64,000 bases of DNA from Candidatus Omnitrophota bacterium (GTDB lineage Bacteria > Omnitrophota > Gorgyraeia > Duberdicusellales > 4484-171), in NCBI GenBank assembly GCA_024231025.1, contig JAAEQW010000139.1:7851-71850 (forward strand), given 5' to 3'. This document shows, piece by piece, positions 9,001-64,000 of the stretch. Under the pieces are notes generated by a model, which saw only the letters and a list, made by a program, of their open reading frames with translations, was not told where the DNA came from and did not search any database. A program made the translations under genes and the position numbers. Within the stretch, counting starts at the first letter, position 1. Each line of letters starts with the position of its first letter.

Positions 9001-12000
9001 AGAGAAGATTGGCTTAAAGCGCCTCTTAATTACCGCTCTTAGTTTTCTCCTCTGATTAGAATCTGGCTGTGCGATCTCAACGATTGAGGTTGCCGGATAG
9101 GCTCCAGAGATCCACTCAGTAACATCTGCCTTAGAAATTGCTGCTTTTTTTAGGCCTTTTATTTGGGGTAGGTTATTTCTTATTGCATTGATTGCTGCTT
9201 TGGGATTATCGCAAGAAATAACGTTATCCAAAATAGTATTAATATCTTGAGAGGTTATTTGCGCTGCTTCGAGATCTTCAATAAATGAAAGTAAACCCTT
9301 ATACATCGTTTCGTTACTGTCTAACGAAAGCATTACCGCAAGAATATTGCCAAAAACATTCGCACTAACTTCATTGCGTTTAAGCGCATCCGTCAACCGT
9401 TTAAACTCTTTCCACTCTCCGGGCCAATAGACACAACGGTGCCAGCGAACACCAAAAGCCTCGAGTAAATCCTTAATGACTCTTACTTCCAAAAATCTAT
9501 ACCTCTTGTCAATATCATACAAAGCTCGTAACAGATAGGTAAATGACTCATGAATTGCTAAGCTGTGCGCTAAGCCCCCCTTGTATTGTTGCAATATATC
9601 TACTTTAGGTTTGGAAATCTTAAGGTAATGGCAATAAATTTCAGCGGGTTTAATAGTATAATTAACATTCTTATAGCCAAGAAATTTCAACGTATTCTGA
9701 AGCATCCGAGCGGTTAGGCGCGTGCCGTATATCGATTTATCCTTATCAATCAGCTCAATTAAAAGTCTGCAAACAGCCGCAGTTATACTTAGATCATCTG
9801 AAATAAGCTCACTGAAGCGCTGATCAATGTCTAACCCCAGTTTCCGATAATGCCAATAAAGCCAACAGCATCTGTCCATATATTCGACTTTGCAACCAAA
9901 CACCTCAACCAACACATCTTCTAAGCTAGCGGCGTTGATACCGGATCTTAAACTTTCTGACTGAAAGCCATTTGAATAAATACCTCTTAACTCACCAAGA
10001 GCAGCAAGAAAAGCTTTTAGTAAATTGTCTCTTGAAGAATAAGGACTAGCCTTAATGCGACTATAGCCTCTACGAATAAAATAAGGGCCAAGATAAGCAC
10101 CAAGCTGAGGAAATTTTGTTAGGTGTTTAGAAAACTTAACTTCCTGTACCTCTGGGTTACACTCAGATAATGGTTTTTCAAATTCTTTAAACAATGAAGG
10201 TAATTGATGATTCTCGGGAACACCCCTAACTAGTCTCATCCGCTGCCGCGTCCAAGGGTGCAACACTAAATAAGCTAAGGGTTTTTTTTGGGGAGTAGCT
10301 ACGGTTACAATCGCAAACGGTGCGGATTTATTTGAAGTAACCGCGGGAAGGTCTTGATCTATCTTAACCCTTCTTCCGGGGTCCAAACCAACAAAAAAAT
10401 CTTCTTCTTTAGGGATTTTCGTATTAAAGATATCATAAATATTTCCCTCCTTATCTTGCATCTGACGAGAAATTGTCGATAAGGCCAAATTATCGCCAAC
10501 TCGCTCATCGCAAGAACCAACATAATCCTCAGAAGAAAGATGCCCCATAACCGCATCTGTAAATTCACACAAATTACTACTATAAACTATTGACTGCCCG
10601 GCAATCTTTTCTTGCTTTCTTCTGATTATCTGAGCATGCCACCTACTTGTGCCGGGTTTTCTTTTGAGCAGAACGGTTTTTTTCTTCTTCCCATTTTTAA
10701 AGGCTACCCCTATTCTAAGTAATTGCCCCTCTTTAGAAAGACTATAGAACCCATCTGAAAATTTCCTATCAAAGTTAGCGCCAAGAACAATCTTAAATGA
10801 TTTTTTTAACTTAAGCAGGACATTATCATCATCTTTGGGCAAATTCAAATCGCCAAAATTAATTCCGTTTTCAATAAGAATTTGTGCCATCTCTAACTTA
10901 CTTATCCCTAAAGTTCTAGCAAAACTTCTAACAAAACACCGATTCTGACTAACCATATCCTTTAATACGTCCAAAGAACATCCGCCAATCAAAAATCCTT
11001 CCATATTTCTCTTTTTCACAGTCACCTCGTCCATAAGAGCAGTTAAAATGACTGAATCTTCTCGTGCTCTGGATGACACACAATAATATTTTTCTCCGGG
11101 AATTTTCCTAACATGCACCATATCAGATAGATGTCTTTTTTGCGCAAGCGCTACCGCCAATCCCATAAAATCAAAACAAGCTCTACCTTTATCAAAAGTT
11201 ACCGGCAAACACTCAAAACAAGAAACAATATCTGCAAAGGCAATCGGTAATTCTTGATAACGACAACCTTTTTCGATTACTCGAATGAGAGGGTGCTTAA
11301 TTCTAGCTCGAGTTATTGCCAAACTCTCATCAGGACCCCCACGCCTAGACGTTTGATATGCAATCCAAGCAATATTTTTACTAAATGAACCCCTTCCCAA
11401 AATATCTCTCGCCCATTTACCAATATCTCCATTCATCTTTTCAGCCCACCAATCAAAAGAACGAAGAACATTCTTCGTAGCTAATGCTATCTGATTTGCT
11501 CGGTAATAATCACGATTAGCGCGCAACCACGCTAAAGTTTGGCGATCCCCATCTTCTTGATTAAGCCCTCCAACATGACCAAATTCATCGCGCAAGGCAG
11601 TAACCAACAATCGATTAGCATCGGTGCCGGTAATTGAAAATAATTCTTCTAGGTATTTTTCATTTTCAATAAATATTGGATACAAGTAAATTTCGCCACC
11701 GGTATAGTGTGAAATTTTACGGCAGGCGCCAACGCGGGCGATATCTACGAGATTAGTATTGGGAGTAATCCAAATAATAATCTCGCCAAGCGAAGCTTTA
11801 AAAAGACGCTCATGCGCTTCTATCAATATATTCTTAAAAGTAGTACTCTGTTCAATAGTTAACGATCCCTCCAAAATACTGAAACAAGAAAGACCTGACC
11901 CCTTAAAGCTAACCAAAAGTTTTACCAGTGCCAAACCTTCATACCTAACCTGAGGTTCAATCGCAACTGCGTAATCAAATTCGTTATCACTCCTGTGTGC

Positions 12001-15000
12001 TGTGTTTGGTTTTTTTACTGGTTTTTTTTTTGATTTTTTAGCTTGAGCTCTAAATTCTTTTAACACTGCCTTAGCCATGTGTCTATCCTGCATACTCACA
12101 GGCAAACGAGCGGCAACGCTCTGCTGCCCAACCCACTCGGGTAATTTAGCACCACTAGATGGTTCTAGAAGATTATTTAAAGGAACCCACCCTACACGCC
12201 CTTGGCGAGAATAGCGCGCATGACAACAAGTTATGTCATCCTGGTCAAAAAGCAAATAGATATTATCAGTTGATAGCCCTCGCTCTTGGTTTTTCTCAAC
12301 AAGCGCTTCTAAGCTTAAGAAGATCTCGTCATTTCTACGACAAAAAGCAACACTCCCTATAATATCGACCGCCGCCACCGCTGCAACTTCTTGACCATTA
12401 GCCTCCGCCACAGCATCCATAAAAGAATTACCAATTAATCGCTCCTTTTTTTTATCTACCTGTTTTCGCATCACTGGAAGCGCATTTTTTGACTTTTCTG
12501 CCGTAGGCATTGGCAAAGCATTAACTAACTTTCTTTTACCAGCTAAAGCTGCCGCCATATGAATAAGAACTGCTTCCTTTTGTTGTTGCAAAGCGTTATT
12601 AAAGGCAAGCGATATATACAAAGTACCGTTTGAATCTTGATCATATAAAAATATCGCAGCAAAAAGCGATCTTTTCTTCGTTAAATACATCATTACCGGT
12701 AAAGAAGAAAGCTCCTCTAAAGCCTTGCGGATACCGCGGTCGTCAACGCTTGATATTAAACTATCGAAGGTACTATCTAGACGCCGCTGTTCACCTGGGT
12801 GCAATTTACGCTTCATCCTCAATTCACTTTCTATCTCTTGTTTTAGATTATGACTACTACTCGCCACATTAGTAAACTGATCAACAGGGCAAAAAACATA
12901 CGGCCGATCATTTCTTTTTTTAGGAATCAAACCACTGGCAGTAGTGGTTTGTCTTTCTTTGTGTTGGGATAAAAACTGATTAGTAATCTTTTCGGCATCT
13001 TCTTTGGCTATGCAACACGTTAAAAATATTAAAGTAGCCGCTAATCTAATGTTACTTGCTTCTTGATGTAAATGAATTTCTCCACTTCTGATTATCCCGT
13101 AAAAATAAATACTCTTGGTATAGTAGAATTCCATGGCACTGATACTTTTCAATAAATTTATGAGACAATCGCTTCCCTGTTTTTCTAAATATTCGTACGC
13201 TATTTTCATTGCCGCAGGAATATTGGAATTTTCTAATTCGTTACGACTCAAAACTTTTGCCCCACTGAGAGCAGCTTCAATTTTTTCTTGCGAAAAAAGC
13301 TGTTTCGCATCCCGAGGGCAATAAGCCACAACTATCAGCTGCTTTGGCCTTGCCCCAATCTCGCTACCGTCGACGATTGTTCCGTCTTCTATTGCTTTGG
13401 GCATATGGATCCAACTATCTCCCGGGGGAAGGCTTTCGAAGAATTCCGCATGAAAACGATTATCCCCTGCTCGCTCAACCCAAATATTTTCATGGTTTAA
13501 TTTTGCAAGATTTTTGTCAAACACCATCCATGTGCCATCGCCATCTTCATTAATTTCAGCAACAACAAAATCAGAAACAACTTCACTCATCTTTCGATTG
13601 GAATCTTTAGTCTTATCAAGATGAGCATTAAAAAGACAACAGCGCTTTAATTGGTCATAACTATGGCAAACAGCGATTTGATTTCTTCCTTTATCTTTAG
13701 CTTGGTAAAGCGCACGATCAGCATTTTCGCTAAGCGACAGGGCATTATCACCTAAAACAAGTTTGTTTTTAGAATCATACTGATAGATCTCATAAGCAGC
13801 CAAACCAACGCTCATCGTAATATTAACTGACTCACCCGCTCTTACAGGGATACCTTGCTTATCTAACGCATCTTTTATCCTACCTAGCACTGATCGAGCA
13901 ACTTCTTCAGTAGTGTCAGTTACCAGCAAAAAGAATTCATCACCACCCCAACGAGCAAAACGATCATTGGCACGAATATTTTTGCGTACTATATCTGAAA
14001 AAACAGTTAGAACTACGTCGCCGGCATTGTGCCCATAAGTGTCATTTATCCGTTTAAAATTGTCCAAATCGATTATAAATAAGAAAAGTCCCGGAGCCTC
14101 TTTCCTGCGTTGCGCCATCAACACCTCACTCGGAAAAAATTCCTTCTCAAAAGGTATCCGATTAAGTGCACCGGTTAAATGATCAGTAATTGACTGCTCT
14201 TTTAGCTGCTCATACAAGAAAAAGCTCCTCATTCTACCTGCCAAATGTTCTCTTTGCTGCAATATATCGTAATTAACCGCAGAAAGCGCCCAGATTACAC
14301 TGCGCACTTCTGTTTCGTTTCTACCAACAAGACAACGACGGCGAGGGCGCCTAGAACTTTTTGGATCATCCAGCCAATTATTAATTAAAAATGTTTCAAA
14401 CTTACCAAGGCGTTCACTGGGCAAAATCGAAAAAATCATTTCACCAACATCACCTTCGTAATCATGCTTATCTTCATTATAATTTACTGCAATTATATCG
14501 GGATTCTTGGGTAATTTCCTCCGATCATAAATATGTAAGCCAACCAGTGGTCTACCTTGGGCGTCATCATTAAACCACCAATTCCAACCAAGTTGCCCCT
14601 TTTTATCATATTCGCGCTCTTGCTTGCGAAGCCTCTTTGCAATACTTTTGCGCTGCTGGTGATCACAATTTAACCACTCTCTCACCACTGAAGAAAACCA
14701 CCCCTTTTCACTATGAGGATCGGCAATAATTGACTGATCATCGTTATCCTCGCTATCGCAATTACCTCCATCGTCAACCATAGCAAAGGCAGAATCACGC
14801 AAACCTTCAGTTTTCGCTTTATTAGCGAATCCACCACTAGCGAGATCTACAGTATAATTATAAGCTGAAGCTCGCTGGCCAATAAAGGCGTTAGTCACCG
14901 TGTGAGTTTCAACCTTCATTTTGTATTTCTCCACATTACGGCGCAGTTGTTTTTCGTCAACTTTACCTTTTCGATAAAGCTCCACTTGCCGATCAAAAAA

Positions 15001-18000
15001 CGAATCAATGTCTCGAATCATACCTGGTCTGGCACCAATAACCTGATAATGGCGATTTCTTTGCTGTTGGTTTTCTGCTTGCCTCACCCATTCCTGAATT
15101 GCAAATGGTATTAAAAGAATAAATGGCAGCGGAAACAACAAAACAACACCCAAAATATAAATAATAAAATGCAGCCCTAAATCAATGAGTCTTTTTAACG
15201 AAGCGTATGGTTTTGTTTCTTTCCAGTTTTGAGGAATTACCTTTAATGGAAAGGCAACTAATAAATATAATGGGTGACCCACTAAATGCAACAATTCATG
15301 AGGATACCTCAAAGTAAAAAACCACTTGTCTCTTTGGTTTTGCAGAGCTAGGCGATTAATCGTGACTCTTCTGCCGTCAAAATGACAGAATATCTGCTCT
15401 GATCCGCTTTTCTCAAAAGCCGTTCCCTCCCATTTCCCCAAGAGATACGATTCGCCCAATAAAATAAGGCCTATCGCAGCAAAAACCCCTATCACAGCAA
15501 AAACCCCCATCGCAGACTTAACAAACAATGCAAACCCAAGAGCAATTATAAGGCAGGTTGTTGCTGCCTGTCTTGCCCCCAAAGAAGAAATATTCTTTGA
15601 TTGGTCTTCGATTTTAGCGCCAATCCAAAAAGCAGAATCTCCTAATTGAAAAAGGGTCAACTCGCTATAACCGACAACATAACAAAAATAATTACCGGGA
15701 AGCTCACAATATATCTCTTGAAGTAAACCTGACGGTAATATGCGCCTGACCAATACATTGCTGATCGCTCGCACTCTCTCTTTGTCAAATTCAAAAACTT
15801 TAGTATCTTTATTTGGATCTAACCCCCAAACTAACTCCCCAACCAAATGGGCATATCCGCGATCAAATAGCTCTTCAATCAAAGAGTTCTGAGTAATTAA
15901 TTCAGTAACCGCAATAAACCGATCTATTTCCTCAGCACTAAGATTGCTCCTCATTAATCCAGACATTGAGCGTAGATCGCTCAACCTGTAAATTAAATTA
16001 ACTAACTTATCATTTACATTTTTTTTTGCCTCTTTAAAGAAAGGATAACCAAAACACTGGCCTAAAAGTTTGATGACCCCATCAATTGACTGCTTAAGTT
16101 TGTCGACTGATCCAATTGAAATTTCTATATTTTCCATGCGAGAACGTATCTTGCGACTATCTGGATAACGATCATCGACTACTTCAGACTCACTAGGTGG
16201 AATTGGATTCCCCAAAACCCGTAAATCAAAACCATCTCTAAAGCCTGAACGAGAACCAACCATTACGTTGTAATCCTCCTCATTGCTAATAATAACTACA
16301 AACCGTATCGCACCTGGATATTCGTGCCTTTCTGATACACTTACTAACAAGTCCAAAAACTCATTGCGGCCAAATTCCGATAATCCTGCCTCAACCACCA
16401 AAGGAATAATTATTTCCAGCTGGGTTACATCTTCGCCTTTATACCCCTCGCCTTCTACCTTAATCAAACCTTCTTCATCGATGGACACTGGTTGCTCCTT
16501 CTTGTTTTCTTCTTTTTGAAATGCTCGTTTATGCGAAAGTATGCTCCTAAGTAACCGTCTTTTATCGATACCGGTTAAATCAAGCGCAAGCGGTGAAGAA
16601 AATAAACACGCTCTTGATGACTGATCAACTAATGCCGCCGCAAAATCAAAAGGAGATTCAGTCAACACCAAGATACTTCTTGGTGACTCCACCTTACCCC
16701 ACACCGAAGCCATCCCCCCATCACCCCACTTATGTAGCTTTGCAATAACTACCAAGACATCTTCGTAAAGCGAATCTGCGCCGCCAACACGAATTTTCTT
16801 TTTTATCTCTGACAAACGCACCCAAGGTATTCCCGGATGGACTGAAAAGTATTCTGCGTGAAAATACCCTGATTCGTCAGTTGGTCGAACATAGACATTA
16901 TCTAAAGAAGATCCAAAATCCCTCCACAAAATATCTTTCAGGCAAGGATCGTAATCCACATAAACCCTACTCGAACCATCATTGGCGCATCTTAGCTCAA
17001 CTGTTGAATCAATTCCTAATCGTGGATCAGTAAAGTACTTTATAAAAGTGAATGCCGCCAAGCCACTAGCATCGCTAAAAGATTGGAAAAGACAACAGTT
17101 GTTGTTAAGGATAACGATCCACCCGGTAAGAATAAGTCTAGAAGCAACCTCGTCAGCTGATAAGACTTGCTCGTTGACTGCCCCTGCCTGCGCTAGCTCT
17201 TTCTCTAATAACTGCTCATAATCACGATCAAGCTCAAACTCAAAAGTGTCAATTGCAGTAAGAAAAATTACCAAAAGAAATGGATTTACTCGAAAATACT
17301 TGATACTATGCGCCAAAGCTTGCGAATGAGTAAAGCCATTAATAAATTCACACCATAAATCATGCAAAACAATATCATCAACAACAACACTAAAAAGGGG
17401 AGATTGATCATCACCCTCATCAAACACAGGCGCACGAGAGGCCGGAGTAGTTGATATTAGAAGTCTGCGGCTTAAACCTTCTCCAGCAATCTCAGCTAAT
17501 TTTCCACTGGGAGTTTTAAAAACAAACTTAACCTCTCCACTATCAACCAACCACTGAAACGAACCTCCTGATAAAATCTTACTAAAAGCAGCGCTGAAAT
17601 ATCTTTTGTAATTTTCTATTTCGCGATCAGTTGGCTCCTCAACCACCTCTCTTTTATCCTTGCCGGAGTAAGTTTTAGGCTTACAATTTACCGCTACAAT
17701 ACCTACCTTTTTTGCTTCCTGGATTACCGGCCAATCATGGAGCAGTCTTGCTATTTCTGCCTGGCGCGCAGCCATCGTATCTTCTAAAAGCTGATTTGTT
17801 TGCTTTTGTTCGCCTTCAAGCTGACGTATCTTCTCAGCAAGTTCTGATACCATAAACTCACTTACTCTGATTTTTCGATCTAACTCCCGCAATGGCAAAG
17901 ATGATTGTTCTGTCAATATTTTTTTGTGTTTAGTTAACAACTGATCATGATGGGTCTTTAAGCTCGTGAGTTTTAGACGCATTCGCCCTATTAACACCCT

Positions 18001-21000
18001 TTGCTTATGTTGTTTTGTTTTAATTCGGGTAATGGTTGGATTAAATTTCTTCTGTATGAATTTTTCGGCTTCCCTTAACGCTCTTCTTTCTTGTGCCAAC
18101 TTAAATGATTTCTTTTCTTCGGCTTTCCTTAACGCCTTTCTTTCTTGTGCCAACTTAAATGATCTCTTTTTTTCGGTTTCCCTTAACACTCTTCTTTCTT
18201 GCGCCAACTTAACCTCAATAACTCTTTTCTCCTCACTTAAACGATCAAACTCAACTTTTAGCGGCGCAACAAAACCTAATTCATCCCTTAAAGACGCCTG
18301 CATTTCTTTTAAGCTGGCAATTTCCATCAGACGAAATTCATGATCCACTTGATAAGATTCTAAATCTTCTATCGCCCTAAGCCATCCATCTTTGTAAGAG
18401 GCGCTATTTCTTACGTTTCTTTGAGTGAGCCTTAATTCTTCTTTTTTCTTGTTAAAGCCAATTTCATCAAAGCCAAAGGCCTGAGCCAACCTTAAAGAAG
18501 AGACAATCTCCTCTAGTTTTCTGTTGTAATCAAGAATCTCCTCTTCTTTACTTTCCAGTTTCTGATCAATCGCTTTGAGGCGCGAAATACGTTTTACTTT
18601 AGCTTGGATCAATTTTTCACCCTCTTGTTCTCCAGACAATAGCGACTCTTCCGGCTTCAGATTAGCCTCCTCCTTTAAGGCCTGATTTAGAGGTTCTTGC
18701 CGTGTCCGTATCGCAAGCGAACACTCACTAATTGCAAAGCGTAAATTTTCTAATTTCTTCTCTGTCTTCGCTAATAAAATTTCGCGGGTAAGCGCCTGTT
18801 GTTTGCTAAAATGTTTTTCTCGTTTGAATTTATCTAAAATCTGTTCAGCTAAAAACAACTTCTCATTAATCGAAGAAATAAGTTTTTTCTTATCACTGAT
18901 ATCTAAAGAAAGTTTAATAATTCTTTCCTGGATAGATTGCAAAGCGCGATCAATCTGTTCTTTCGCCTGTTTGACTGCAACAATCTTTTCTTCAATTGCA
19001 TTTAATACCTCTTTCGTCTGGACAATCAACATTTCCTGCTCTTGTAAACGTTGATAAATTGTACTGTCAAGCTTTTTGGAATGCATCTGAAAACCTAAAC
19101 TATTGTGAGCAGCAACGAACTGTGCTTTTTTATGCGCGCAATACGCGTTAGCTTTTTTCGCTCTTTCTGTTATCAAGGATATTTCTTGCTCAAGAAAAGA
19201 GTTTCTTATTCGAAAATTTCTAAACGGCTGCTCCAGCGCTACAAACTTGTCAACAGCAACTTCTACTGGTTTATCCTTAACTCGCATATACAGCTGTCTA
19301 ACATTTCGAGCTGTTTTTTGTATTTCTTCTTCAAGTAAAAGCAAACGATTCATCGCCGCTTGTTCTCGAAGGGCAAAAATCCTACTATAATGTTCGCGTC
19401 TTAAAGAAGCCCATTTTTGCTCTAAGGTGGAAATAGATTTTTTAATTTCGGATACTTTTCGAAGTTGGAGCTCCTCTTCGATAATCGCAGCCACCTCGAT
19501 AGTGACAAGATACCATTGCCTAATCGACTCGATATCCGGCTTACTGCAAATTTCCCCTCTCCATATGGCATTTTCGGACGCTAATTCATATCTTTCTTGC
19601 CTTAGAAGGCGTCTCCATCGCATAAACTCTGGACGATAGCGATAACTTTCAACAATAAAACTAAAATGATCAAGATCCCTTTTTCTCTTTTCTAATCCTT
19701 GTAAAACTTTTCCATTTGTTTGGTCCTTTAAGCTTCGTTTTCTTGCTTCTACCAAAGTTAAATTTCGTTCTTTAATACTCCTAAAAGCTAAATTATCTCT
19801 TTCTTGCGTCAATTGTCGCTCACACGCAATTAATGGTTCTTTAAAATCTTTAAACGCAGCAATACTTTCTTTCAATCTTAATCGTTTATCCTCTAAAATT
19901 CGCAACCGCTCTTGCGCCTGCACTAGAAGTTCACTATCCGCTCGCAATTCTTGCTCTAATCGCCAAGCACGCAAAGCTTTGTATTTATTTTCTAAATTTT
20001 CTCTGATTGCCGCTGCCCTGATTTTGGCTTTTTGCCAAGACAACTCCTTTTCTTCACATGCCATATAAGTCATAGAACAAGCGTCTAGACGAGCTTTACC
20101 AATCATTAACGCTCTCTTATTCTTTTTGCGATCGGCTAACGCAGCTTGGTGATTTTTTTGATCTTTTTGCAATCGAATAAGATCTTGCTCGATTTGAAGT
20201 TGTGATTCTAGCTGCCTGTCTTGTTCTTTTTTCAACTGAGCGCGTAACTGCTCGAGTTCAGAGAGAAGTTCCCCCTCGCTTATTTTTTTATTACTAAGAG
20301 TAATAACTTCTGATTTTTCTGTACTGATGGTACCATTTAACATTTTCAAGAAGTCATCAACTTCCTGATGCAATCGCCTTGATTCATCAACCTCGTGTTG
20401 AATCTGAGGCATATCATTCGCAAAGGAAGCTAACCTTTTTCTTTCTGCCTCAAGGCGTTCGGTAAGCTGCCTAACCCTGTTGGAAATTTCTCTTTGCTTA
20501 TACTCTCGCTGCCTGCAAACAGATTCAAACTGTTTTTGTTTTTCATTTTCTATTTTAGAAACTTGCTGATCTACTTCTAACCGCTGGCGAGCTATTTGCA
20601 GGTCTTGATACTGTTCGCGAAGGATTAATTCTTTTCGACTTGCGTGTCCAAGTACGTCAATAATAGTTTCTAGATCATTTTGTTTTTTTACCCGATTTTC
20701 TTTAAGGGAATTAACCTCCGAAACAAGAGCAGGCAAAACTGCTTCTTGTTCCTCCAACGCCTGAATCTGTTTATTAATTTTTTCTAATCGACGCCCTGTT
20801 TCTGCTAACTTCTCTTCACTCGATAACAGTGATTGCCTTTTAATTTCAACGTCTAGCCTTTCAATTTCCTTTGTAACTATATCCAACCTTTGAGCGGAAG
20901 GAGCCAAGTGCGCTAAACGTTCTGTTAACCCATTCTTGCGCGCAATAAGAGAGTCCACTCTACTGTACGATTGACTAACCTCAGCCATCCTCTCTGCTAT

Positions 21001-24000
21001 ACCATGCGGATCATTGGCATCAGCTAGGTAGTATTCATAGTGTTCATGAGTAAGAGTTTGTTGATCAAAGTTTAAATTTTCTGGGGTGATGGTTTCTAAA
21101 TTATTAAGGGGATTTGTTGTTGTGATATAAAGGATGGGGCCGGTATCAGAATCATCAATTATTGAGCCAAAGTCATCAACAGCGTTTTCTACCTGCATTG
21201 CCTTGGCTGCAGTAATTTGTAGTGGCGGACCTCTGCCGTTATAGCCTGCACTAGCAAGTGTTCTCTTTATTTGCGCGCCTTCTGCGACCAGGCGCTCATC
21301 TACCCAAGGGATACTTATCTCGACTACCCTGCCTAATTGGCTAGCGCTTCTTATGATCTTCTGAATCTCTTCCTTTGTGTGCCTTCCGTTTGAACCGCGA
21401 GGGCCGGTTGATTGCGGAAAAGTTTTCAATCCAAATGTATGTTTTTTTTCTTGATCAAAAGGACTAGCGGTTATCGAAGAAATTAGAAAAGGGGTTGTGG
21501 CGACAGGGAGCCTACAGCCACGGAAAGAGGCTACCACCGCCATCCACAACCTTTTATTTATTATACTACTAAATAATCCGGTTGTGTAGAAGATAAGTCG
21601 CCTACCCGCAAAAAAGACTATAAAAGCTGCAACTAAAATAGTGAAAATTTTTATACTAAAAGAAGCAACTGCAATCATTGCCAAAACGCCCAACGGCGCA
21701 AACCCATATTGATTAGCGGATGGGCCGCTCGGTTTTTTACGAATAGCTTTTAGTTTTTTGGTAATCATAAGTCTCGATAAAGGTTTTACACAAGTAGCTT
21801 TAATATTACCAGAAATATCCGAATCTATTCTAACGTTAGGTAATTTGGCAGTAAGCAAGATGTATGCTTGGGGATCAATTTTTAAAATTTCTCGCACTAT
21901 ATAAAATCTCATAAAGGGTGTTACCTTTACTGCAACGAAAATTGCATCAAAATTGCCGCCTTTAAATACTTCAATTGCACTAGATCTGTCTGTTGCCTTC
22001 TCCGCACTTTCAAGTGCACAAACAACTTCAATTGAATTATCTATTCTCGCTACTAATCTTTTGAATCTATCTAAAAAATTTCGGTTTTCATCGATAACTA
22101 GTATCCTTACTGAAACATCAGATGGCGGCAAACTTTCATTAAGTGAACCGCTTAATCCGTTCGTCTCATGAAGATAACCCCCGAATCTCTTCCATGCAAG
22201 AACGACTAACGCAAGAACAATACCAACTCCAGATGCAATCAGTATCCCAAGATCCCCATTTGCAATAAGAGGTATCAAAGGAGAAGCAGTCGCAATCGTT
22301 GCAAAAACACCTAACGGCGCAAATCCATGTTGCTTAGTAACTTGTTTTTCTGATGATTTTTCAGTAATTGTTTTAATTTCTCTCTCAAGCGCTCTCTCTT
22401 TGCTTTTTAAAATCTTTTTAGCCTCACGGATTTTATTCCCATATTCTAATATTTCACCTCTTAAATTAATCTTTGCTTGCTTTTCGATTTCACCTGTAGA
22501 ATTGCTTAACCGTTTTGCTGCTTTTTTACGAGATGCCTCTATACCCTCGATATCGCTTTTCAACGCAGTAATTTCGCGGTTTAAATTTGAAATGCTCTCA
22601 TTATCTTTAGTTACTGCGGCCAACTGACCTCTCAGTTCTTCTAGATGAGAATTTGAATCAATATCTTCTAATGCATACCCCGCGATTTTCAATTGCTTAG
22701 AGGTATTTTGCTCGCGGTCAAACGAACTCTGGTAATCACTAAAGGCTCTTTGAGCCTGGGTGGCAGCTGAGTATTGATTAATAAACTTAAGAGTATCGCT
22801 TCCTAATTTTCCTTCTTGTAGATGTTGCAAATATTGACGCGCGCTTTTCAGTTCAGCTTCTACTTCTTTAATTAACTCAAAAGTCGCAGAAGCTTCACTA
22901 TTGAGAATATCAATACGGCTATCAACTTGCGTAATCTCTCTATTTAAGCGTTCGACCTCGCGCTCGATGCCTTTTTTCTCTCTTAAAAGTTCTCTACTAC
23001 CGGCATCAATTTTCTCTAATTCTTCATACAGCTTTTTTTCTTCAATTTTTCTTAACTCTTCGCTTTTACTTGCGATCTCATTGCAAAGACTATTTACTCT
23101 ATTTGCTATTGTGCTTTCACCGAATGAAGAAAAACTATCATTAACAATTACCCGCATTATTGAAAAATCACCTCCAACATCTTTAGTAGTCTCAATTAAT
23201 AAACTGGTCATTTCTCTTTGTAAGCGTATGCGTTCATTTTCAAAATTCAATAATTGCTGGTTAGTTTTCTTCTGCTCTTCTTTAATGGACTCGCTAAGAG
23301 ATCCGATACCGTCTAACGTCAACATATTGCCCATAGGATCTTTTAATTTCCCCTTGATGCTTGCCACTCGGTCAATGAGCGGTTGCAACTTATCAAAAGG
23401 AGCGCTATCGCCGTGTTCCTTTCTAAGTGCTGCTTCTTCGTTTTCAGCCGTTTCGAGATCGGCAATAAGCTGGCGGCATCTAGCCTCCACTTTACTTAGA
23501 TTATTGGCAGTAGTCGAAAGTTTTTCGAGCTCTTCTTGCAACTGGATCTTCCTTTGCTTTAGAGAATCCATTTCCCCAAGTAATTCTTCTACTTTTTCTC
23601 GTTGAAAATTTGGATAAGTCAGGCACAATTCATCCACAACAGATTCATTTTTTAACACTCTAACCTCAGCCGCTAACTCGTGTTCAGATCTTTCATATTG
23701 GTCGAGATTGTACAGAAATTGAGCATTTTGAAAAACTAAACCCATTATCTCTTCGGTAACATCAGGATTTTCGTTAATCAACTTGATAAATTTTTTCCAA
23801 AGCGAAAGTTCACTATTGAGCTGTGCCCTTCTTTGCTCCTGTAATGTGAAAGATACCAGGGCTGCTTTTTCATTGGCGGGCAAATTATTCTGCAATTTTG
23901 GTAATTTTGTGAGTGCATCTTCTAAATCAAAAAGTTCTGTTTTTAATCGTTTTAAGACATTCTGATATTCATTTATTTCGTCAGCAAGTAAAAGCGCTTT

Positions 24001-27000
24001 CCCATCACAGATTTCCTTACGATGCTTAGAAAATTCTAGAATTTTTTCATCGAAACTGTCAATCTTTTGCCGATTTTCTCTGCGCTGGGTCGCCAATCTT
24101 GTTTTGCTCTCTTCCGCATTAGTTAATCGATCTTTCGCATTGCCTAGTGCATTTGTTTCTTGCCTGAAACCTTCTTGAAGTTCACTTACATAACTGCCTA
24201 AAGCATCAACTAAAGCTGCCTGCGCAGAGGATAAATCTTCTTTCACCTGATGAGAATCGCTTAAAGCAATTATCGTTTTCTCTAAATCACTTTTCTGATT
24301 AAGCAACTCACTCATTGCCTGTTTGATGCGCTGGCGTTGTTGATTATGTTGATGCAATGATAATTCAACCATACCATCTAAATTCTGTTTAACCTTTCTT
24401 GCCTGGTCTTCAGTATCTGATCTTTGCCTGCGTAATGTGTCTAATTGGTCGTTAAGCTTCTGTGCATCTTCTTTGGCTTTTTCTTTTTTCGCGTTAAGAT
24501 CATTTATCTGCCCGATTGTTAAAGATAAATCCTCTAATTCACTATCAATTGAAGGTACAGCTTCTAAATAATCGTTAACCTTTGACTGTAATGCTGTGGC
24601 ACGTTCACCATCAACCTTTAACTGCTGATTGTTTTCTTCGATATCACTCTCTGCCCTCTTTAAAGATCCTTTTAATTGTTCCTCTTCCTCATTAATGCGA
24701 TCAATCGTATCATCATGGGAGCGTTTCATTTCGAGCGTATCGGCATTGGCCCTTTCTATTAAGGTCTTATTGCTCTTAATCATCTCATTAAGCTCTTTTC
24801 TTATATTTTCCAATTGCTGGCTCTTGTCATCTAGAACCGCTCTTTGCTTTATAAATTTATTTTCTAACTTCTCTGTCGCATCAATTGCAACTAAAGCATT
24901 GCGGCAAACAGCAAACGCGTCTTCATCCATTGATTGCGCAGATGTATTTTCAAGATTTTCTAATCCCGCTTGCGCAAGCAAAACATCTCGTCTTAAAATT
25001 TCTAATTGCGATAACTTTTCCTCGCTCTCATTAACTATAGGCTCAAAAAGATCTGCCTGAATCTTACGTAAATCAGTAATTTTTTCACTTACATCAAGTA
25101 ACTCTCTCTCATTATCCCTTAATAATTTTTCTGCAGCTGTTAATTCTACTTGCAGTGAAGTTCGCAAAGTGCTAATTTCATTTTGTTCTTTTTGAGCAGA
25201 TACCAAATCGCTTTGCAAATTCAACTGACACGCTTGAGTTAAGGCAGGAAACTCATCTGCAACATTTTGCAGATGCTTTATTCTTTTTTGTCGTAGTTCA
25301 CACTCTAAGGCAGATAATGCAACTTTCTCTTCTTTAGTGCGTGCGGCCGTTAAACTTTTCTGATAATCATCTTCAAGGAGAAAGACCGTAGTGGTTTGCT
25401 CCGGTATTTTTACGCTTATCCCTTTTAACTCTTCGTTTTCAGCTAACAAGCGTTCACTCTGGGAGCCTTGAATCACTCGTGACATATCATCTACGCGCAT
25501 CTCTAAATCAACTAAACTCTCTAGCCTACTTGTGTATTGTTTATTTAATTGGTCTCTTTCTTCTTGCTTTGGGTCTAATTCGTCTTGGGCTTTTTTAAGT
25601 GCCTCTTCCAAAGGAGGCAGGCTTTCTTTTAGCTCTTGGCGAGTGCAAGTGTTTTTGCTTAATCTAGTTGCAATCGTCTCCCAGGCATTCACTAAAAATA
25701 ATACGGGGTCTTCGTCTGAGAGGTCTTTTTGATCATTCTTAATTTCATCGAATAAAAGTGCCCTTTTATCTTCTAATTTTTTCACTTCTTCATTTGAGCC
25801 TTTTATTTTATTTCCAACATCATTTACTTTTTCCTCGGCCTCTAAAAAGCTGTCCTCTATTGGAGATTCTTCTTTTTTGATTTTCTCTAGCGCAGTTTCA
25901 TTTTTTCTAAGTTGATTATTTTCATTGCTGAGCCTTTCCCTTAAAGAAGCTAAATCACTTTCATAACCACCTAAAATGCTTTTTAGCTCAGTTAATTTTT
26001 CTTCTAATTTATTCACTTCTTTTTGAGCTAATTGCTGCCAAGTTGAACAATCAAAATCTGCTGCTTGTGCGTCTTTGGCGCTTACCCCTATTGTTCCTAA
26101 TAGTTGCGATTGTTCCATTTTCAATCCTTCAATTTCCCTTTCTTTTTCCGCTGCTGTTACGACCTTGCGACGTCCGAATGCAGAAAGGCGCGGCGTAGAC
26201 CGCACTGACTGCCTTCTCTCAGCAATAATTAAATTATCATGTTCGTTACGTGCGATAAAAAGAGACTTTTCTATTTCTGATTTTCGAATAAGCAAAGCCT
26301 CTAAGTCCGGTGTTTGGCCTACTTGCCTACAACTATCGCGCAAAATTGCCGCTTCTTTCTCGCTTTGTTCTAACTTTTGCGTTATTTCTTCATATCCTTC
26401 GGTACATCTTTCTAGCTTTCTCTGTGCTAAAACAAACCCTTCCTCCTTTTGCTCAATTACTTCCGTTAATTGGTTGCGTTGTATTTCAAGTTGACGCCAT
26501 CGACTGCTACCCTGATCCTGGCCCATCAAAATTGTTTCTTGAAGGGCAATATTTTCTCGGATCTGATTAATTTTTGTTATTTTTTTACCTCTCTCTCCTT
26601 TTTTCGCATTAAGTGCACCCTTTAAATTCGTCAAATCACTTTCTTTTGGAACAAGTTTTGCCTCATTATCTCTAATTTTTTCATCAAGACTGCCAATATC
26701 TCCTTCGGTAGCCGCGACATCGCCTTCAATACTCTTTAGCTGCTCGTTTAGTTTTTCTACGCCATTATCTTCATCTTTTAAAAACGGTTTCTCAGCAGTC
26801 ATACTTTTTATTTCCAATGATAACCTTTTTCGCTCCTCTAATAGAAATCTATTTCGCGCTTTTGCTGATTCAACTTCCTCGCTATCGGAATCTAAATTAG
26901 CTGCCCGCAATCTATCCTCTTCCAATATATCGCTGGTTCTATTAAATTCCCCTATCGTTCGATTTAACTCCTCGAAATCAGCAATTTTTTCTCGCAATCC

Positions 27001-30000
27001 CCATCCTTTAAGCTGCAACTCGCTAAGCTCGCTAAGCTTAAGTGCGCTTTTTGCCTCATCTTCACTGATTATTGCAGATATCTCTTTCACTTCGCTATCA
27101 AGAGGATCATGATCGTTCTGAAGATTATCTATCTCATCATTAAGCTGCGACATGGTATCTTCTATTTTGCCCACACTTTCGCAATTTAGATCTATCTCAC
27201 GAGATAAAGATTGCACCTTTCTTTTTAGCTCCTCAAGACTCTCATCAACGCCCTCTCGTTGCTCTTGGTTTTCTTTTAGACTTTCATTTATTTCTTTATA
27301 AGTTTGCTTAGCTGCATTTAAGTCTTCGTTTGCCTTTGTTAATGCTTTTGTGTCTTTAGCAACTTCAAGCTCCTGCGTTCGAAGCACCAATACACTCTTA
27401 GCTATTTTCAAATCTTCATTGGTTTTATTAATTTCTTCCTCTTTGTTTTGTTCTTCTCTGCTTATCTCATCTTCCAAAAATGTAATACCTTGTTGCGTTT
27501 CACTGAGAAGCCCTTCTCCGCGTGCAATAGCCTCTTCGTGAGATTTTCGTTCATTTTTTACATCGCTACGCTCTGTGCCAAGACTTATTAATCGCGCTGT
27601 TGCCGCGGTGTATTCATCATCTTCATTTGATAACTCTTCCCTCAGAGAATTTAAGGAACGCTCGATCTCTTCTGCGGCAGAAATAAACTTTTCAATTTTT
27701 TTAACCCGACCTAAATCATCAATTGTACGTTGTTTGTTATTTATATCTGTTTCTATTTGATTTCGCGCTTCTTCTTTTTGTTCAATATCAAGATCTAAGA
27801 GCCTAAGATCATTTTCATCGGTTTCTTTTTGCTTAAGCATTTCAGAAAAATTTGCCTTAACAGTTTCTAGATCTTGCTTCAAAGTTGCCAAAGCTTCTAG
27901 ACGCGCTGGAGTAACCGTTTGCGTTAATTCGCTGTGCCTAACATTTAGTTGTTCTAGCTTTTGAGAAGCCGCCGTTAATTCATTGTCTGATGTTTCAAAC
28001 GCTAGCCTCAATTCTCTTAATTCTTCCCTGGCTCGGTTTAACAACGCCTCACCATCTGCTTGCTCTTTTTCTAAAACCACTAGCCCATCTTGCCAAACTT
28101 TACGTTGCCTTAACTCAGCAATCTCTTCTATTTTAGCGCGAACTTTATTTGACCTTTCTGTTAGTGTTAGTGTTAGCGAGTGCGCCTTCTGCTCTAATTC
28201 TGCACGCTTCTTCTTAGCAATATTTTTTTGATGTTTGCGATCAGCAGCTGCTAGATTAGAAAAAGAAATTTCAAAATCGCATTCACCCTTGACGTCAGTT
28301 TTTAGCTTGGCTATTTCTGAGAAAGGTAAATTGCTCATAGACTTCTCATAATCGGTTTTGATTTTCGCAACCTCTTTTTCTATTCTATCAATTTCATCAG
28401 TAAGTTCTTTTTCTGAATTCCAAACAGTAAGATATTCTTGTTCGGCATTCGATTTGTCCGTAGCTTGCTGATCGCGCATCGTTTCTATTGACCGTTCGTT
28501 TTTAGCAACAGTATCGTGTTTTGATAATGCTGTTTGACGTAATTCTGCATTAAGAATTTTTACAGCTTGACTTGTTCCTTCGTTTTCAGCTTTTGCGGTG
28601 CTAATTTGATTTTCGCAGTCAGAAAGACTTTCTCTGGATAAACCCAAATTATTTTGAAGTGTTTGGCGTTCTGCAGTTAAGCTTTCAATACGCGTTTCGA
28701 CACCTTTTGGATCGCCAAGTTTTTTGGTATCGTCACCAAGGGAAGATATAGATCGCAACTTATCGCTCACGTCTTTGTCAAAAGAAGTAATTTGCTCTTT
28801 TAGACCTTCACTCTGATGTTCTAATCTCCTCTGATGATCACCTAGAAAAATGCAATTTTCATCAACAATCGGGAAACGTTCCCGCTGAACACGTTCTAGA
28901 TAATCTTTAACCATACCCGCTTGTTTGATTGCCTCACTATTTTCTGCCGCATTGAAAGATGCAACTTGCCCAACGAGAAAGCTTTCCATAACAAAAATTC
29001 TTCTGGAAACATTTCGATATAATTGATAAAGACTTTCACGTAAATCGTATAAGCTATTTTCATCTAAAATACCATCTGCCACTACCGCGCGATACGCTTT
29101 CATCTCACGGGCATGATTGGAGAGTAATTCTTTCAAATCCCCGATTACACTTTCATCCAATTGGCTCAATTGTGAAACTTCAATGTCTAGCCCTTCTTCT
29201 TCGGTAGCTTCTTCTAAGGTAAAGTCCCCTTCCTCGAAGTCATCAGCGCCTAGGGCATCTTTTTCTAATTCAAAGTCCCCTGGTGCAAAGTCGTCAGCGC
29301 TTAGAACATCTTCTCCTAATTGAAAGTCCCCTTCCTCGAAGTCGTCAACAGTTAGTGTTTGGCCGCTTTCTTCTTCATTATCGTTACCACCATTGCTGCC
29401 TAGAATTCCTAAGATTCCACCACCCAAACAAATTGTAACAGCAAGTGCTAAAGAGCTTGGGGTTGTTTCTTGTGAAAAATAATCTGCTACCTTCTGAAAG
29501 TCAAAATATGGCAATATATTACTAACAAAGAAGCTGACTGCTTTTACAGCCATAAACACAAGCGGAATAATTGCAAATGGAATAAGGCCACACAATGGCA
29601 TCGGCTTAGTTCTATTTAATAATTCGCCAACAACGTTATAAAAATTCTCACCTTTAATAATTGTTCTTGCAAATAATTCCCAAGCCTCTTCGCTATTGCC
29701 AAAAAGCCTTAGCGTTATCCCGGCAAATAATTCTCCCTCATAACTGGAAAAAGTTGCTTTTATGGCATGCGACTTACCTTGACGCTGGCTTACAAGTTCA
29801 AGGGTAGTTCTAGATAAAGCGCCTTCTTTTGCCGCAAGAATTACATCCAACGCAATACCGTTTAATAGCATTTGTCCGATATCTTTCCCTTGGTTAAAAG
29901 CTTTCAACCTAGGGGCATCTTCTGCACTGTATGCGCCGTCACTATCTGCGTCAAAGCCACCATTTGTGTATTTATCAGCCAAACGTAACCTCGCATAATA

Positions 30001-33000
30001 AGCACCCATTGCTTCTTTATGGTGAGGAGTTCTTGGCAAAATCCCTTCAAAGCACAAAAAATGAGTTAGCTCTTCAGGGAAAACAGCTTCAAGTTGCCGA
30101 GGCGTTTGCGCCGCGCTCATCGCAATTGTTGAACCTTTTTTTGTAGAAGAAGTTAAATCGTTAATGAGGCCGGCCTCTTTCATCATTCTGATCGTTTCAG
30201 GTTTAATTTCTTCATTTGGCATCTCTTGGGGGAAAAGATCACTAAATGTTAATGGCTTTATCGCCTTGTGTATAAACCTTTTTAGAGTTTCTTGCGTAAA
30301 CCTTTCTGATTTTATATATGGCCAAAACTTCCTAACAAAAAATCTAATATTTTCGTCAAAAACTATTCTCTGAGCATAATAAAAACTCAATTCTGCTCCG
30401 AGATTAATGATCATTCTGAGCTGCCTTACCAAAACAGCAAACTTTATTTCCGAAATATCAGACGCAAAACTGTGCAAATTTTCGCCATCAACTTTCAAAT
30501 CTTTAAGATATCCGGCAGAAGTCACAAGGGCAGTTTCTAATTCCGCACGCTTTGTTAGGCGTTGACTGCTATCATCCTCAAACGCTCTTACGACTTGGCT
30601 ATGTGCCTTATCAAGCTCGACTAAAGAAAGAATTAGTTGAGCGATTTTATTACCTCTTTCACAACATACCTGGGAAGCACTTACATCAGGCGCTAAATTT
30701 TTTTCCGCCTGAGACGTCACGTTAGCCTTACCTTTGCGCATCGCTTCAAGTTGACGCTTCTTTCCATTTGCGTGGCGTTCTAGTCGATCCCTACCTGGTG
30801 CGGTTTCGTGCACAACCACTTGTTCAATAAATGTATCATAGCGATAATCTCTATTGGCACCAACCAAAGCTGTTCGAATTTCACTATAAGATAGGACCAA
30901 GCTCATCTCGCCGCCATTACTTTCAGCAATTGGTAAAACTCTTCCATGCTTTTTAAAAATCGCACCATTAATGATTTCAGTATCTTTAATGAGTTCTTCA
31001 ATATCATTGAAAATGTCTTCGTTGCGTCGGTCGATAAGCCATAACCTCATTTCCGCAATTGCAGGGAAGTTGTGGCTTCTAGAAAGTTCTGCTTTGAGCT
31101 CTTCTTTTAATTTACTAATTACTGGTTTTACGCTTTTACCCGTTAGCAATTTAAGTACTTCTTCAACATATAAACGCTCAAGAATGCTAAAAACGTGTTT
31201 GGTCGCGTCAACATTATATATTGCCTTATTATCCTGCCCCCAGGAGTATTCACCCGACCAAAACCATTCTGACACTTTTACTTTCTTCTTATTTTTTTCA
31301 TCGTACTCTCTTCGTTTACCCTTAGTAGGCCTTCCGGTTAAATCCACGACGAGTTTTCCGGCGTCAAATTTCCGACAAGCTTTACGACGAATTCTTCGGT
31401 TAGCTCTGCGACGAGTTTTAAGGTGAATTCTACGGCGAGCTTTCCGACAAGCTTTACTGCGAGATTGTCGCTGAATTATACTAGATTCTATAGTAACCGC
31501 GGGTTCTACGGAAACAAAAACAATATCTTCCAATTGTAAAAAAGCAAACCCTACCTTTCTGGGGTCCATCTCATCATCTAAAGACAAGAAACACTCCAAA
31601 CCGAATCCGGTTCTTTTAGCCATGTCTCTAACTGCGGCTGCCTTATTCACATCAGCCCTTAACACATCAACGCTGGTAGTACCGCCCTCAGTCACCACCA
31701 AACTAGCGTCTGAAGGACCTAGTGCTACCTTGCGGTTGATATTATTAACAATATCCTCAACAATTTCACCTAAAATTTCTCTCGCTGATTTTTCATTGAG
31801 TATTTTCTTGCTAGGATATATTCGCGTAAAAGTATATCCAACAATTGCTCCTGCGGAATCTTTTCTTGTATCAATCAACGGCCAATCATCCGGCAACGCA
31901 GATAAAGGATCGGCTGCGTCACACGATAATTGCTTTGTTAAATTTTTTACATTTTTCGGCTCTATATTCGAACCATGTAAAACTTTGTATAAATCACCAA
32001 TAATTTTAGGTAGGTTTTCTTCTATTCTTTCTGACACCCTCACCTCTTTGTAGTGCTTATTAAACCAATCCCTGTGCGCTTTACTTGAACTACCACTTAA
32101 AGAGTGTTTAATTTTCCCAATGAGATCACCGTGCTCATCTTCATTATCTAATAGCGATCTATTTTTTGCGATTGTGATTATAATTGTTTCCCAAATCCCG
32201 CAAATACGTTTTAACGAGCTTTGCAATAAATGTTCTTGGTCGTCATTAAACCCTTTGGTATAGCGGGTGTCATCCTTAAAACCTCTGCCGGCCTCGTCAA
32301 TAACCCTTCTGACTCCACCGCTATAAGCATAAATGCTGAAACGCTCAAAAAGACAATCAACAATAAATTCAGTTAAAGAACGACCCTGCTGACGGTCAGG
32401 TTGATTACCGGAAATAACCGCATAATGAAGACCCCACAAAAGAAACCTATTTTTATACTCAACAATCTTAAAATCTTCCGGATCATTACGCAAAGCGGTA
32501 GTTAAATCCATATCCGTGGCAATCACTCCTCGGTTGATACGCTTGATCCCTCTCAATACTTTTTTATCAATTACTAGTTTTCCGTAACTATCAAATTCTA
32601 TTCCTTCAAGCGGCTCAGTAGTGTCTTGCAGACGGAACTTATAGCCTGAGTCATAAACAACTAGTTCTGCCTTTTTGCGAACTAAAATATCTAATAGGCT
32701 TCTTCCTTCGATAGTTTGAGCTTGGGGCCCTAGTTTCTCGATTAACGCTAGGAATTGACGGCAGACTAAAACAGTTAACATGCTTTTACCTTCGATCAAA
32801 CTTGGACCATAACCATTTTGCTTTATTTGCCGGGAGAACTCTTCATCCTCAATATTATTTCTCGAATGAAGCGCTATAAGATTTTGCCAAACAATTACCG
32901 CTAAAGCCTTTCGTTCTAATTGATCTAATTTTTTTCTAGGCTCTTGAAACCGACGCTCCACAAGCTTAGAGTCTGTTAATTCGATACCGGCAAAATTATC

Positions 33001-63984: not shown

Positions 63985-63990
63985 TTTTCG

Positions 63991-63996
63991 CTCCTT
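63991..63996 (-). promoter_or_regulatory. Shine-Dalgarno-like AAGGAG, 6 nt upstream of the candidate ATG start at 63984.
   Basis: Reverse complement of ctcctt at 63991-63996. The spacing to the ATG is canonical. However, the upstream in-frame codons still align with the repeat unit found at the starts of modules 2 and 3, so the ORF may continue 5' beyond the window. Confidence 0.45.
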
Positions 63997-64000
63997 AGGG

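Follow-up and report, generated by a model that had tools for sequence, protein, structure and literature searches.

The adaptor receiver of PleD and other pseudo-receivers act as phosphorylation-independent interaction modules. FrzS of Myxococcus xanthus, in which a receiver is joined to a 258-residue coiled coil, carries Ala53 at the site of CheY Asp57 and works via its α4-β5-α5 face without phosphorylation (PMC1974792). Aspartate-less receivers are enriched in proteins with GGDEF domains (Maule et al. 2015, PMC4395418). CheY-like receivers and GGDEF domains are also among the listed domains of giant proteins of Omnitrophota and Actinobacteria (10.1101/2023.11.21.568195). The subject of this analysis is a domain of one giant protein, encoded on contig JAAEQW010000139.1 (positions 7,851 to 71,850 of the forward strand) of Candidatus Omnitrophota assembly GCA_024231025.1. 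The whole stretch of 64,000 bases is referred to here as the window. The domain is a highly divergent CheY-like receiver (REC) of residues 13964-14089 (window 21733..22110), in which Ala occupies the position of the phospho-acceptor Asp. It is flanked on both sides by hydrophobic elements that share a motif. All features described lie on the minus strand unless stated otherwise, and residue numbers are those of the window frame, residue i being encoded from window position 63999-3(i-1) downwards.

The initial annotation, made from the sequence alone, considered that a pseudo-receiver in the middle of a coiled-coil rod would be an unusual structural or signalling hinge. A hinge role is purely hypothetical, and 'unusual' is too strong. 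About 6% of bacterial receiver domains are pseudo-receivers (Bourret et al. 2025, PMC12632262), FrzS is a precedent, and PF00072 receivers are present in 105 of 916 long Omnitrophota proteins (10.64898/2026.06.07.730766). Pseudo-receivers are common, and hence no new category is opened. The distinctive properties of this example are its extreme divergence, which places it below every library threshold, its insertion between paralogous membrane elements and the orphan status of its host protein. No published pseudo-receiver that is placed between membrane hairpins is known to us, although no systematic search for one was made.

Membership of the receiver superfamily is indicated by several sequence comparisons. 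A phmmer search against all PDB chains gave 12 matches at E <= 10. The top seven are all CheY, the best being Thermotoga maritima CheY (E = 1e-3). These are followed by further receiver chains, namely TrrA, another CheY and a CheY chimera, and the set contains one unrelated weak match with E above 1. Run exhaustively against 1.84 billion representative proteins, HMMER returned four matches in total. Query residues 85-200 align with three of them, which are ordinary tandem-receiver proteins (E = 4.3e-5 to 4.5e-4); the fourth is a repetitive protein aligned solely to the C-terminal hydrophobic element. In a profile comparison with hhalign, a 155-residue segment matched an alignment of nine receivers, which leaves out the query, with 97.7% probability (E = 1.8e-12); the match extends through 118 columns, starting at strand 1 and ending at helix 5. 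A hidden Markov model (HMM) built from the same nine sequences and run with filters off over the 21,333 residues of the giant frame gave a single match, aa 13964-14089, at 32.8 bits. No further receiver was thus found in the giant protein by this model, and no further copy of the whole module (receiver plus flanking elements) by the model and the motif pattern together. Identity to any receiver is only 18-26% in the MAFFT and hhalign alignments. The sole Pfam line on the domain at E <= 10 is WASH-7_mid (E = 0.2), and NCBIfam reported no receiver model for the domain and its surroundings. The REC-like core put forward by the initial annotation is nevertheless upheld by the CheY matches at the top of the PDB search, the best HMMER value and the hhalign probability. 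As far as sequence can tell, the core is confirmed as a member of the CheY-like receiver superfamily, with similarity beyond chance.

The predicted fold points the same way. AlphaFold2 (AF2), supplied with a 22-sequence receiver alignment (A3), gave a model with a mean predicted local distance difference test score (pLDDT) of 80.2 and a predicted template modelling score (pTM) of 0.75. Its elements follow the order β1-α1-β2-α2-β3-α3-β4-α4-β5-α5. Confidence is low in one part of the model, an insertion of 8-9 residues between strand 2 and helix 2. Compared with the PDB by Foldseek, this model had receiver-type folds as its best 50 matches, nearly all of them annotated as response regulators. 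They include TrrA, PorX, RR468, CheY, DrrD, Spo0A and the CikA pseudo-receiver, with TM-scores of up to 0.82 on the target. The initial annotation had named a non-flavodoxin fold as the outcome that would count against it; the AF2 fold, obtained with an alignment of receivers only, is flavodoxin-like and of the receiver type.

The position of the phospho-acceptor is taken by Ala14023 (codon GCA, 21931..21933), which corresponds to CheY Asp57 and lies at the C-terminal end of strand 3 according to MAFFT, hhalign, HMMER and AF2. The three alignment methods concur in placing FDAIFV-A-VKVTP against xDxxxx-D-xxMP, so that Ala14023 fills the sole column that is Asp in all nine reference receivers. 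Strand 3 of the AF2 model comprises aa 14019-14023 and ends at this residue, whereas Asp14018 (of 'FD') stands at its beginning and is the non-catalytic Asp that is usual there. The alanine had been noticed in the initial annotation, which proposed an alignment to CheY as a check, and no alignment puts an Asp at the acceptor site. The remaining landmarks are in place. The acidic pair D13970-E13971 (22087..22092; MAFFT, hhalign) corresponds to CheY Asp12-Asp13, T14050-A14051 (21847..21852; MAFFT, AF2) at the end of strand 4 to Thr87-Ala88, and K14072-P14073 (21781..21786; MAFFT, hhalign) to Lys109-Pro110. Several secondary features are degenerate. Relative to the acceptor (D), position D+4 is Thr with the Pro displaced to D+5, and D+8 is Arg, not Gly. 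Position K-3, relative to the conserved Lys, is Thr14069, so no aromatic switch residue is present. By the definitions of PMC12632262 and PMC4395418, the predicted domain is an aspartate-less pseudo-receiver.

These residues also bear on whether the domain could be a working receiver, either phosphorylated at a non-canonical site or showing Ala through a sequencing or assembly error for Asp. This is very improbable, even though the domain has the acidic pair, Thr, Ala and Lys-Pro that phosphoryl chemistry needs. The GCA codon is two substitutions away from GAY (Asp), and a one-base sequencing error at this codon was rejected on that ground. Val occupies both D-1 and D+1 and Lys occupies D+2, which leaves no Asp, Ser or Thr close by as a substitute acceptor. 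No HisKA, HATPase_c or Hpt domain was detected at E <= 0.01 in aa 1-21,000 of the giant frame, the scan ending 333 residues before the end of the frame.

By sequence and predicted structure, the domain is closest to single-domain CheY and tandem receivers (Thermotoga maritima CheY, TrrA, P0001, P0002 and P0004). It has in common with them the DD, T-A and K-P landmarks and a 'KIDP' junction between helix 3 and strand 4. It differs from them in its low identity, the Ala acceptor, the shift of the D+4 Pro by one position, the loss of the D+8 Gly and the 8-9-residue insertion. In its logic, the domain has its nearest analogue in FrzS, whose receiver fold likewise shows Ala in place of CheY Asp57, is attached to a long coiled coil and serves, independently of phosphorylation, for interaction and localization (PMC1974792). 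FrzS, however, is a soluble protein of about 550 residues with the receiver as N-terminal domain, whereas the present domain is internal to a protein of more than 21,000 residues and has membrane elements on both sides. FrzS lacks Asp13 and Thr87 but keeps the switch Tyr; here, the acidic pair and Thr are kept and K-3 is Thr. There is also no specific sequence similarity between the two, and FrzS is absent from the 12 PDB matches at E <= 10. With the pseudo-receiver class in general, the domain shares the (βα)5 receiver fold without acceptor Asp and the presence of a GGDEF domain in the same polypeptide. Published sets, in contrast, are defined by a PF00072 match and the present domain is below every Pfam threshold, and the commonest reported substitutions are Glu, Asn and Ser (PMC4395418).

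The two flanking hydrophobic elements open with the same motif. Motif copy 1, QHGFAPLGVFATIATAS (aa 13890-13906; 22282..22332), begins the N-terminal element. Copy 2, QYGFAPLGVLAMIAVAS (aa 14097-14113; 21661..21711), follows a strongly basic linker, KKLKAIRKK. Both elements begin with Q(H/Y)GFAPLGV(F/L)A.IA.AS, and the pattern G[FYLIV]AP[LIVM]G, sought in all 21,333 residues, is present in exactly two places, aa 13892 and aa 14099. In the DNA, the motif corresponds to a direct repeat of 56 nt, 82% identical, with the copies 621 nt (207 codons) apart. The initial annotation had seen (H/Y)GFAPLGV(F/L)A on both sides of the domain, and the direct repeat with its two occurrences bears this out. 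The shared motif and the repeat indicate that the two membrane elements are paralogues framing the receiver. A foreign insertion of the module was considered and rejected: G+C stays between 0.34 and 0.46 across 19.5-24.5 kb and does not shift at the module.

The N-terminal element is a convincing helix-turn-helix of 20 residues, NGD and 20 residues. It consists of APLGVFATIATASPLIPLIA (aa 13894-13913), NGD and LGILIASGVGIVLALVVLAW (aa 13917-13936), followed by KRF (22192..22320). Its Kyte-Doolittle peaks are 1.67 and 2.77, and AF2 run on the single sequence models helices broken at NGD. A crude Hessa-scale sum gives a ΔG of about -2.6 for helix 2 and a marginal value of about +3 for helix 1. 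The C-terminal element, FAPLGVLAMIAVASFSIKIFTILVAAFIVFFAG (aa 14100-14132; 21601..21702), is followed by RR. It is a hydrophobic run of 33 residues with one Lys and no turn-forming residues, and has a Kyte-Doolittle value of 2.36. The Hessa-scale sum is -2.66 for the second half and about +1 for the first, and single-sequence AF2 gives one continuous helix at low confidence. This element may cross the membrane once as a long span or form a tight hairpin of two helices, and looks like the first element minus about 10 residues around the turn. In both elements the motif-bearing first half is marginal (+1 to +3) and the second half strongly membrane-seeking (about -2.6). Kyte-Doolittle values, the crude Hessa-scale sum and charge counts, by which the spans were judged, fit one span as well as two. 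Of the two transmembrane (TM) hairpins described by the initial annotation, the N-terminal one is therefore retained as helix-NGD-helix, whereas the 33-residue run of the C-terminal one may be a single span.

Two arrangements of the chain are possible. With two spans per element, the rods on either side and the receiver would all be cytoplasmic; with one span per element, the receiver would be cytoplasmic and the rods outside. Basic residues are found on both sides of the receiver loop, as KRF after the first element and as KKLKAIRKK (six K/R in 20) before the second. By the positive-inside rule, these clusters make the loop fit the cytoplasm under either topology, and the receiver is probably located there. 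Giants with TM segments only have been read as cytoplasmic proteins stitched to the inner membrane (10.64898/2026.06.07.730766), while West-Roberts et al. warn that topology predictions for giant proteins are unreliable (10.1101/2023.11.21.568195).

Taken together, these features are best accommodated by a phosphorylation-independent, aspartate-less pseudo-receiver that forms a membrane-proximal interaction module of the giant protein, and this reading is probable. The proposed mode of action is as follows. (i) A highly divergent CheY-like receiver would have turned pseudo-receiver, with Ala in place of the acceptor and the acidic pair, Thr, Ala and Lys-Pro kept. (ii) The domain sits in a short loop of about 165 residues between two paralogous membrane-embedded elements of a protein exceeding 21,333 residues. 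(iii) It would be held at the cytoplasmic face of the membrane as a fixed knob for protein-protein interaction or dimerization. (iv) Its working mode would be independent of phosphorylation, without a phosphotransfer switch. Homology, fold class, active-site identities, flanking hydrophobic repeats and context are direct observations; the cytoplasmic location, the absence of canonical phosphorylation and the interaction role are what we infer.

Several points weigh against this interpretation. The domain is unmatched by PF00072 even at E <= 10, and by six pseudo-receiver Pfam families (PF06490, PF21155, PF21194, PF21695, PF21714 and PF22368) at the same threshold. Single-sequence AF2 of the 284-residue module leaves the core unfolded, with a pLDDT of about 30; it modelled the hydrophobic helices only and was not used for the fold assignment. 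Alignment A3 contains receivers only, so the fold test is partly circular, although the unbiased sequence searches (PDB phmmer and HMMER) agree with it. The missing Pfam match, the failure of single-sequence AF2 and a PDB E-value of only about 1e-3 are also what could be cited for a chance resemblance, or for another flavodoxin-like family. That the domain is not a receiver is nonetheless scarcely probable: the significant matches on the domain in two unbiased searches are all receivers, the hhalign match extends across its full length, and the matches fall on the signature DD pair, T-A and K-P positions. Other difficulties concern function. Thr at K-3 means that the α4-β5-α5 face, if used, works without classical Y-T coupling. 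Pseudo-receivers of long standing do not typically retain four of the five catalytic residues; their retention here could point to recent decay or to a leftover site for a ligand or metal. The membrane topology fits either of the two models given above.

The main weakness of any functional claim is the missing orthologues. A word-indexed search of 5.8 billion protein clusters found no relative of the module or of a 3,000-residue chunk around it. No relative of the module, or of the profile of the five-fold N-terminal repeat described below, was found in GTDB genomes or JGI metagenomes, nor any relative of that repeat profile in IMG/VR viral contigs. With no orthologue, there is no evidence of selection on the domain, on the Ala or on the flanking motif.

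The lack of relatives showing constraint agrees with a decaying relic, in which a captured receiver has lost its acceptor Asp and is now a folded or semi-folded spacer without signalling or binding. So do the extreme divergence (no PF00072 match, and no receiver closer than the identity range given above), the residues that have been lost (Pro at D+4, Gly at D+8 and the aromatic one at K-3), the low-confidence insertion between strand 2 and helix 2, and the patchwork of duplicated pieces that makes up the giant protein. This alternative is unlikely but has to be taken seriously. Against it, the domain keeps its hydrophobic core pattern and, with the K-P pair among them, four of the five active-site residues, the frame is intact over 64 kb, and a duplicated membrane element frames the domain precisely, resembling an organized module.

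The four retained pocket residues may also be read as a ligand site. The acidic pair, Thr and Lys would then form a pocket, for example for cyclic di-GMP (c-di-GMP) produced by the protein's own GGDEF domain, and binding would move the membrane helices and rods. An intact GGDEF domain with an I-site is encoded in the same protein, the enrichment of aspartate-less receivers with GGDEF partners (PMC4395418) is in keeping with such a role, and the ShkA pseudo-receiver is a precedent for the binding of c-di-GMP (PMC7010744). Ligand sensing is nonetheless rather improbable. About 2,500 residues and several membrane segments separate the GGDEF domain from the receiver, in which no known c-di-GMP-binding motif was seen, though none was looked for, and the idea is purely inferential.

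A more ambitious version of the favoured pseudo-receiver model would make the membrane-clamped domain a regulatory joint, at which a partner or nucleotide (e.g. c-di-GMP from the protein's own GGDEF domain) re-arranges coiled-coil arcs of about 2,000 residues via the membrane elements. We regard this as decidedly improbable; if true, it would be a new wiring of the receiver fold into a membrane-anchored megaprotein. Other consequences are more immediate. Profile-profile and structure-guided searches can recover signalling domains in giants that Pfam-based catalogues miss. Since the present domain is missed by Pfam, published domain inventories of giant proteins are likely to be undercounts. 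The module is also a short, well-delimited piece (a core of 126 residues in a loop of about 165) of a protein whose size otherwise puts it out of reach of study. A cytoplasmic location is expected of a receiver fold, which constrains the membrane side of rods of a thousand residues and more.

The host gene occupies the entire window. The minus strand of 1..63999 is one stop-free frame of 21,333 codons by six-frame stop counts, with 0 stops against 779-2,498 in the other five frames. The stop expectation is about 7% per codon for the window composition, so a frame of this length is beyond chance. Because the frame fills the window, the gene must exceed 64 kb, with neither of its ends inside. 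The peptide read by the initial annotation at 21560-22330 is present on the minus strand, but its start is two bases off: it is obtained by translating 22332..21560 and spans aa 13890-14146. Codon starts at 22330 and 22331 were rejected, both frames being full of stops. Plus-strand open reading frames that overlap the region (e.g. 21953-22171) were likewise rejected as antisense artefacts of the giant frame. The giant frame carries 31 Kyte-Doolittle hydrophobic peaks in about 10 places. With more than 10,000 codons, many TM segments and many unrelated enzyme domains, the protein has the general build of the membrane-anchored giants of the Omnitrophota type. A divergent SecA_DEAD helicase domain, said to be present in most such giants, was not found within the window, past both ends of which the gene extends. 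Like the known giants of Omnitrophota and Actinobacteria, the polypeptide combines multiple TM segments with multiple enzymes, including GGDEF, HAD and kinase-type domains. It differs from them in that its receiver copy would escape Pfam-based catalogues and that the host protein has no detectable relative in the collections searched.

The module interrupts a heptad-rich stretch of about 4,500 residues, with about 2,000 residues on either side. Heptads were scored with our own heuristic, which is not an established coiled-coil program. The upstream segment (aa 11540-13889; 22333..29382) is coiled-coil-like and fills the interval from the preceding TM hairpin (aa 11467-11534) to the module. Here 47% of residues are in heptad-like windows versus 6% after shuffling, the composition is 14% Glu, 12% Leu and 1.1% Pro, and the weak Pfam matches, Laminin_II and RTBV_P46, are to coiled-coil families. 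The downstream segment (aa 14340-16130; 15610..20982) is partly heptad-rich (30% versus 5% shuffled) and reaches the next TM hairpin (aa 16142-16181). In other regions of the giant protein the heptad-like share is 3-7%. The coiled-coil surroundings described by the initial annotation are thus supported, with heptads, low Pro and high Glu and Leu by this heuristic, and 'coiled-coil rod' appears a reasonable label for them.

A domain of 153 residues follows directly downstream of the module (aa 14186-14338; 20986..21444). A second copy, 70% identical, is found at aa 19019-19169 (6493..6945). Each copy starts 50-70 residues after a membrane element, and the conserved motifs are TG.RGSNGRHT, PPLQI, DDFGSIIDDSD and THEH.EYYLAD. 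Neither Pfam nor NCBIfam gave a match to this domain, and a search against the PDB gave no significant match, the best being the C-terminal domain of Vibrio cholerae cytidine deaminase (E = 0.26). Upstream of the second copy, at aa 18627-18968 (about 7100-8120), a hydrophobic pair encloses about 300 residues, a loop in a position equivalent to that of the receiver. The loop has weak matches to sigma-70 region 4 and extracytoplasmic function (ECF) sigma factors (Pfam E = 0.008; TIGR02937 E = 0.004), with a helix-turn-helix-like part at about 7564-7707. The succession of TM element, small regulatory-type domain, TM element and 153-residue domain may be a repeated design.

The GGDEF diguanylate-cyclase domain (aa 16604-16774; 13678..14190; PF00990, E = 2.9e-35) is intact. 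It has the GGDEF motif and, five residues upstream, an RxxD I-site (RAND). It lies about 2,500 residues downstream of the receiver and about 300 residues after a TM segment. Other enzyme-like domains are found in the first half of the frame. A region at aa 7150-8990 (37036-42336) includes a PRK/uridine kinase (E = 4e-22), a cytidylate kinase (E = 4e-18), several further P-loop domains and a HAD hydrolase (E = 9e-14); taken together, these predicted domains form a cluster of the nucleotide-metabolism type within a single polypeptide. Further upstream, at 51499-51690, is a PHP domain (E = 6.5e-10). Residues 1-8600 (about 38200-63999) consist of large internal repeats with 27-76% identity. Among these is a unit of 375 residues present five times, 39-53% identical to the first copy (alignment A4), with the motifs PEDWQDLEP and YDGSRFPA and no Pfam match.

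A multi-pass membrane region with about ten hydrophobic segments is located at aa 9060-9694 (34918-36822). Both its halves end in KWKEVYQLVA...SHNFP, which indicates an internal duplication, and SHNFP is seen again at aa 10975. Strong hydrophobic segments occur at aa 9060-9694, 11467/11516, 13894-14132, 16142-16301, 18627/18950 and 19890. Between residues 9.1k and 18.6k their spacing is roughly 2,300-2,500 residues, and some of the gaps hold long heptad-rich stretches, an arrangement that resembles a chain fastened to the membrane at even distances.

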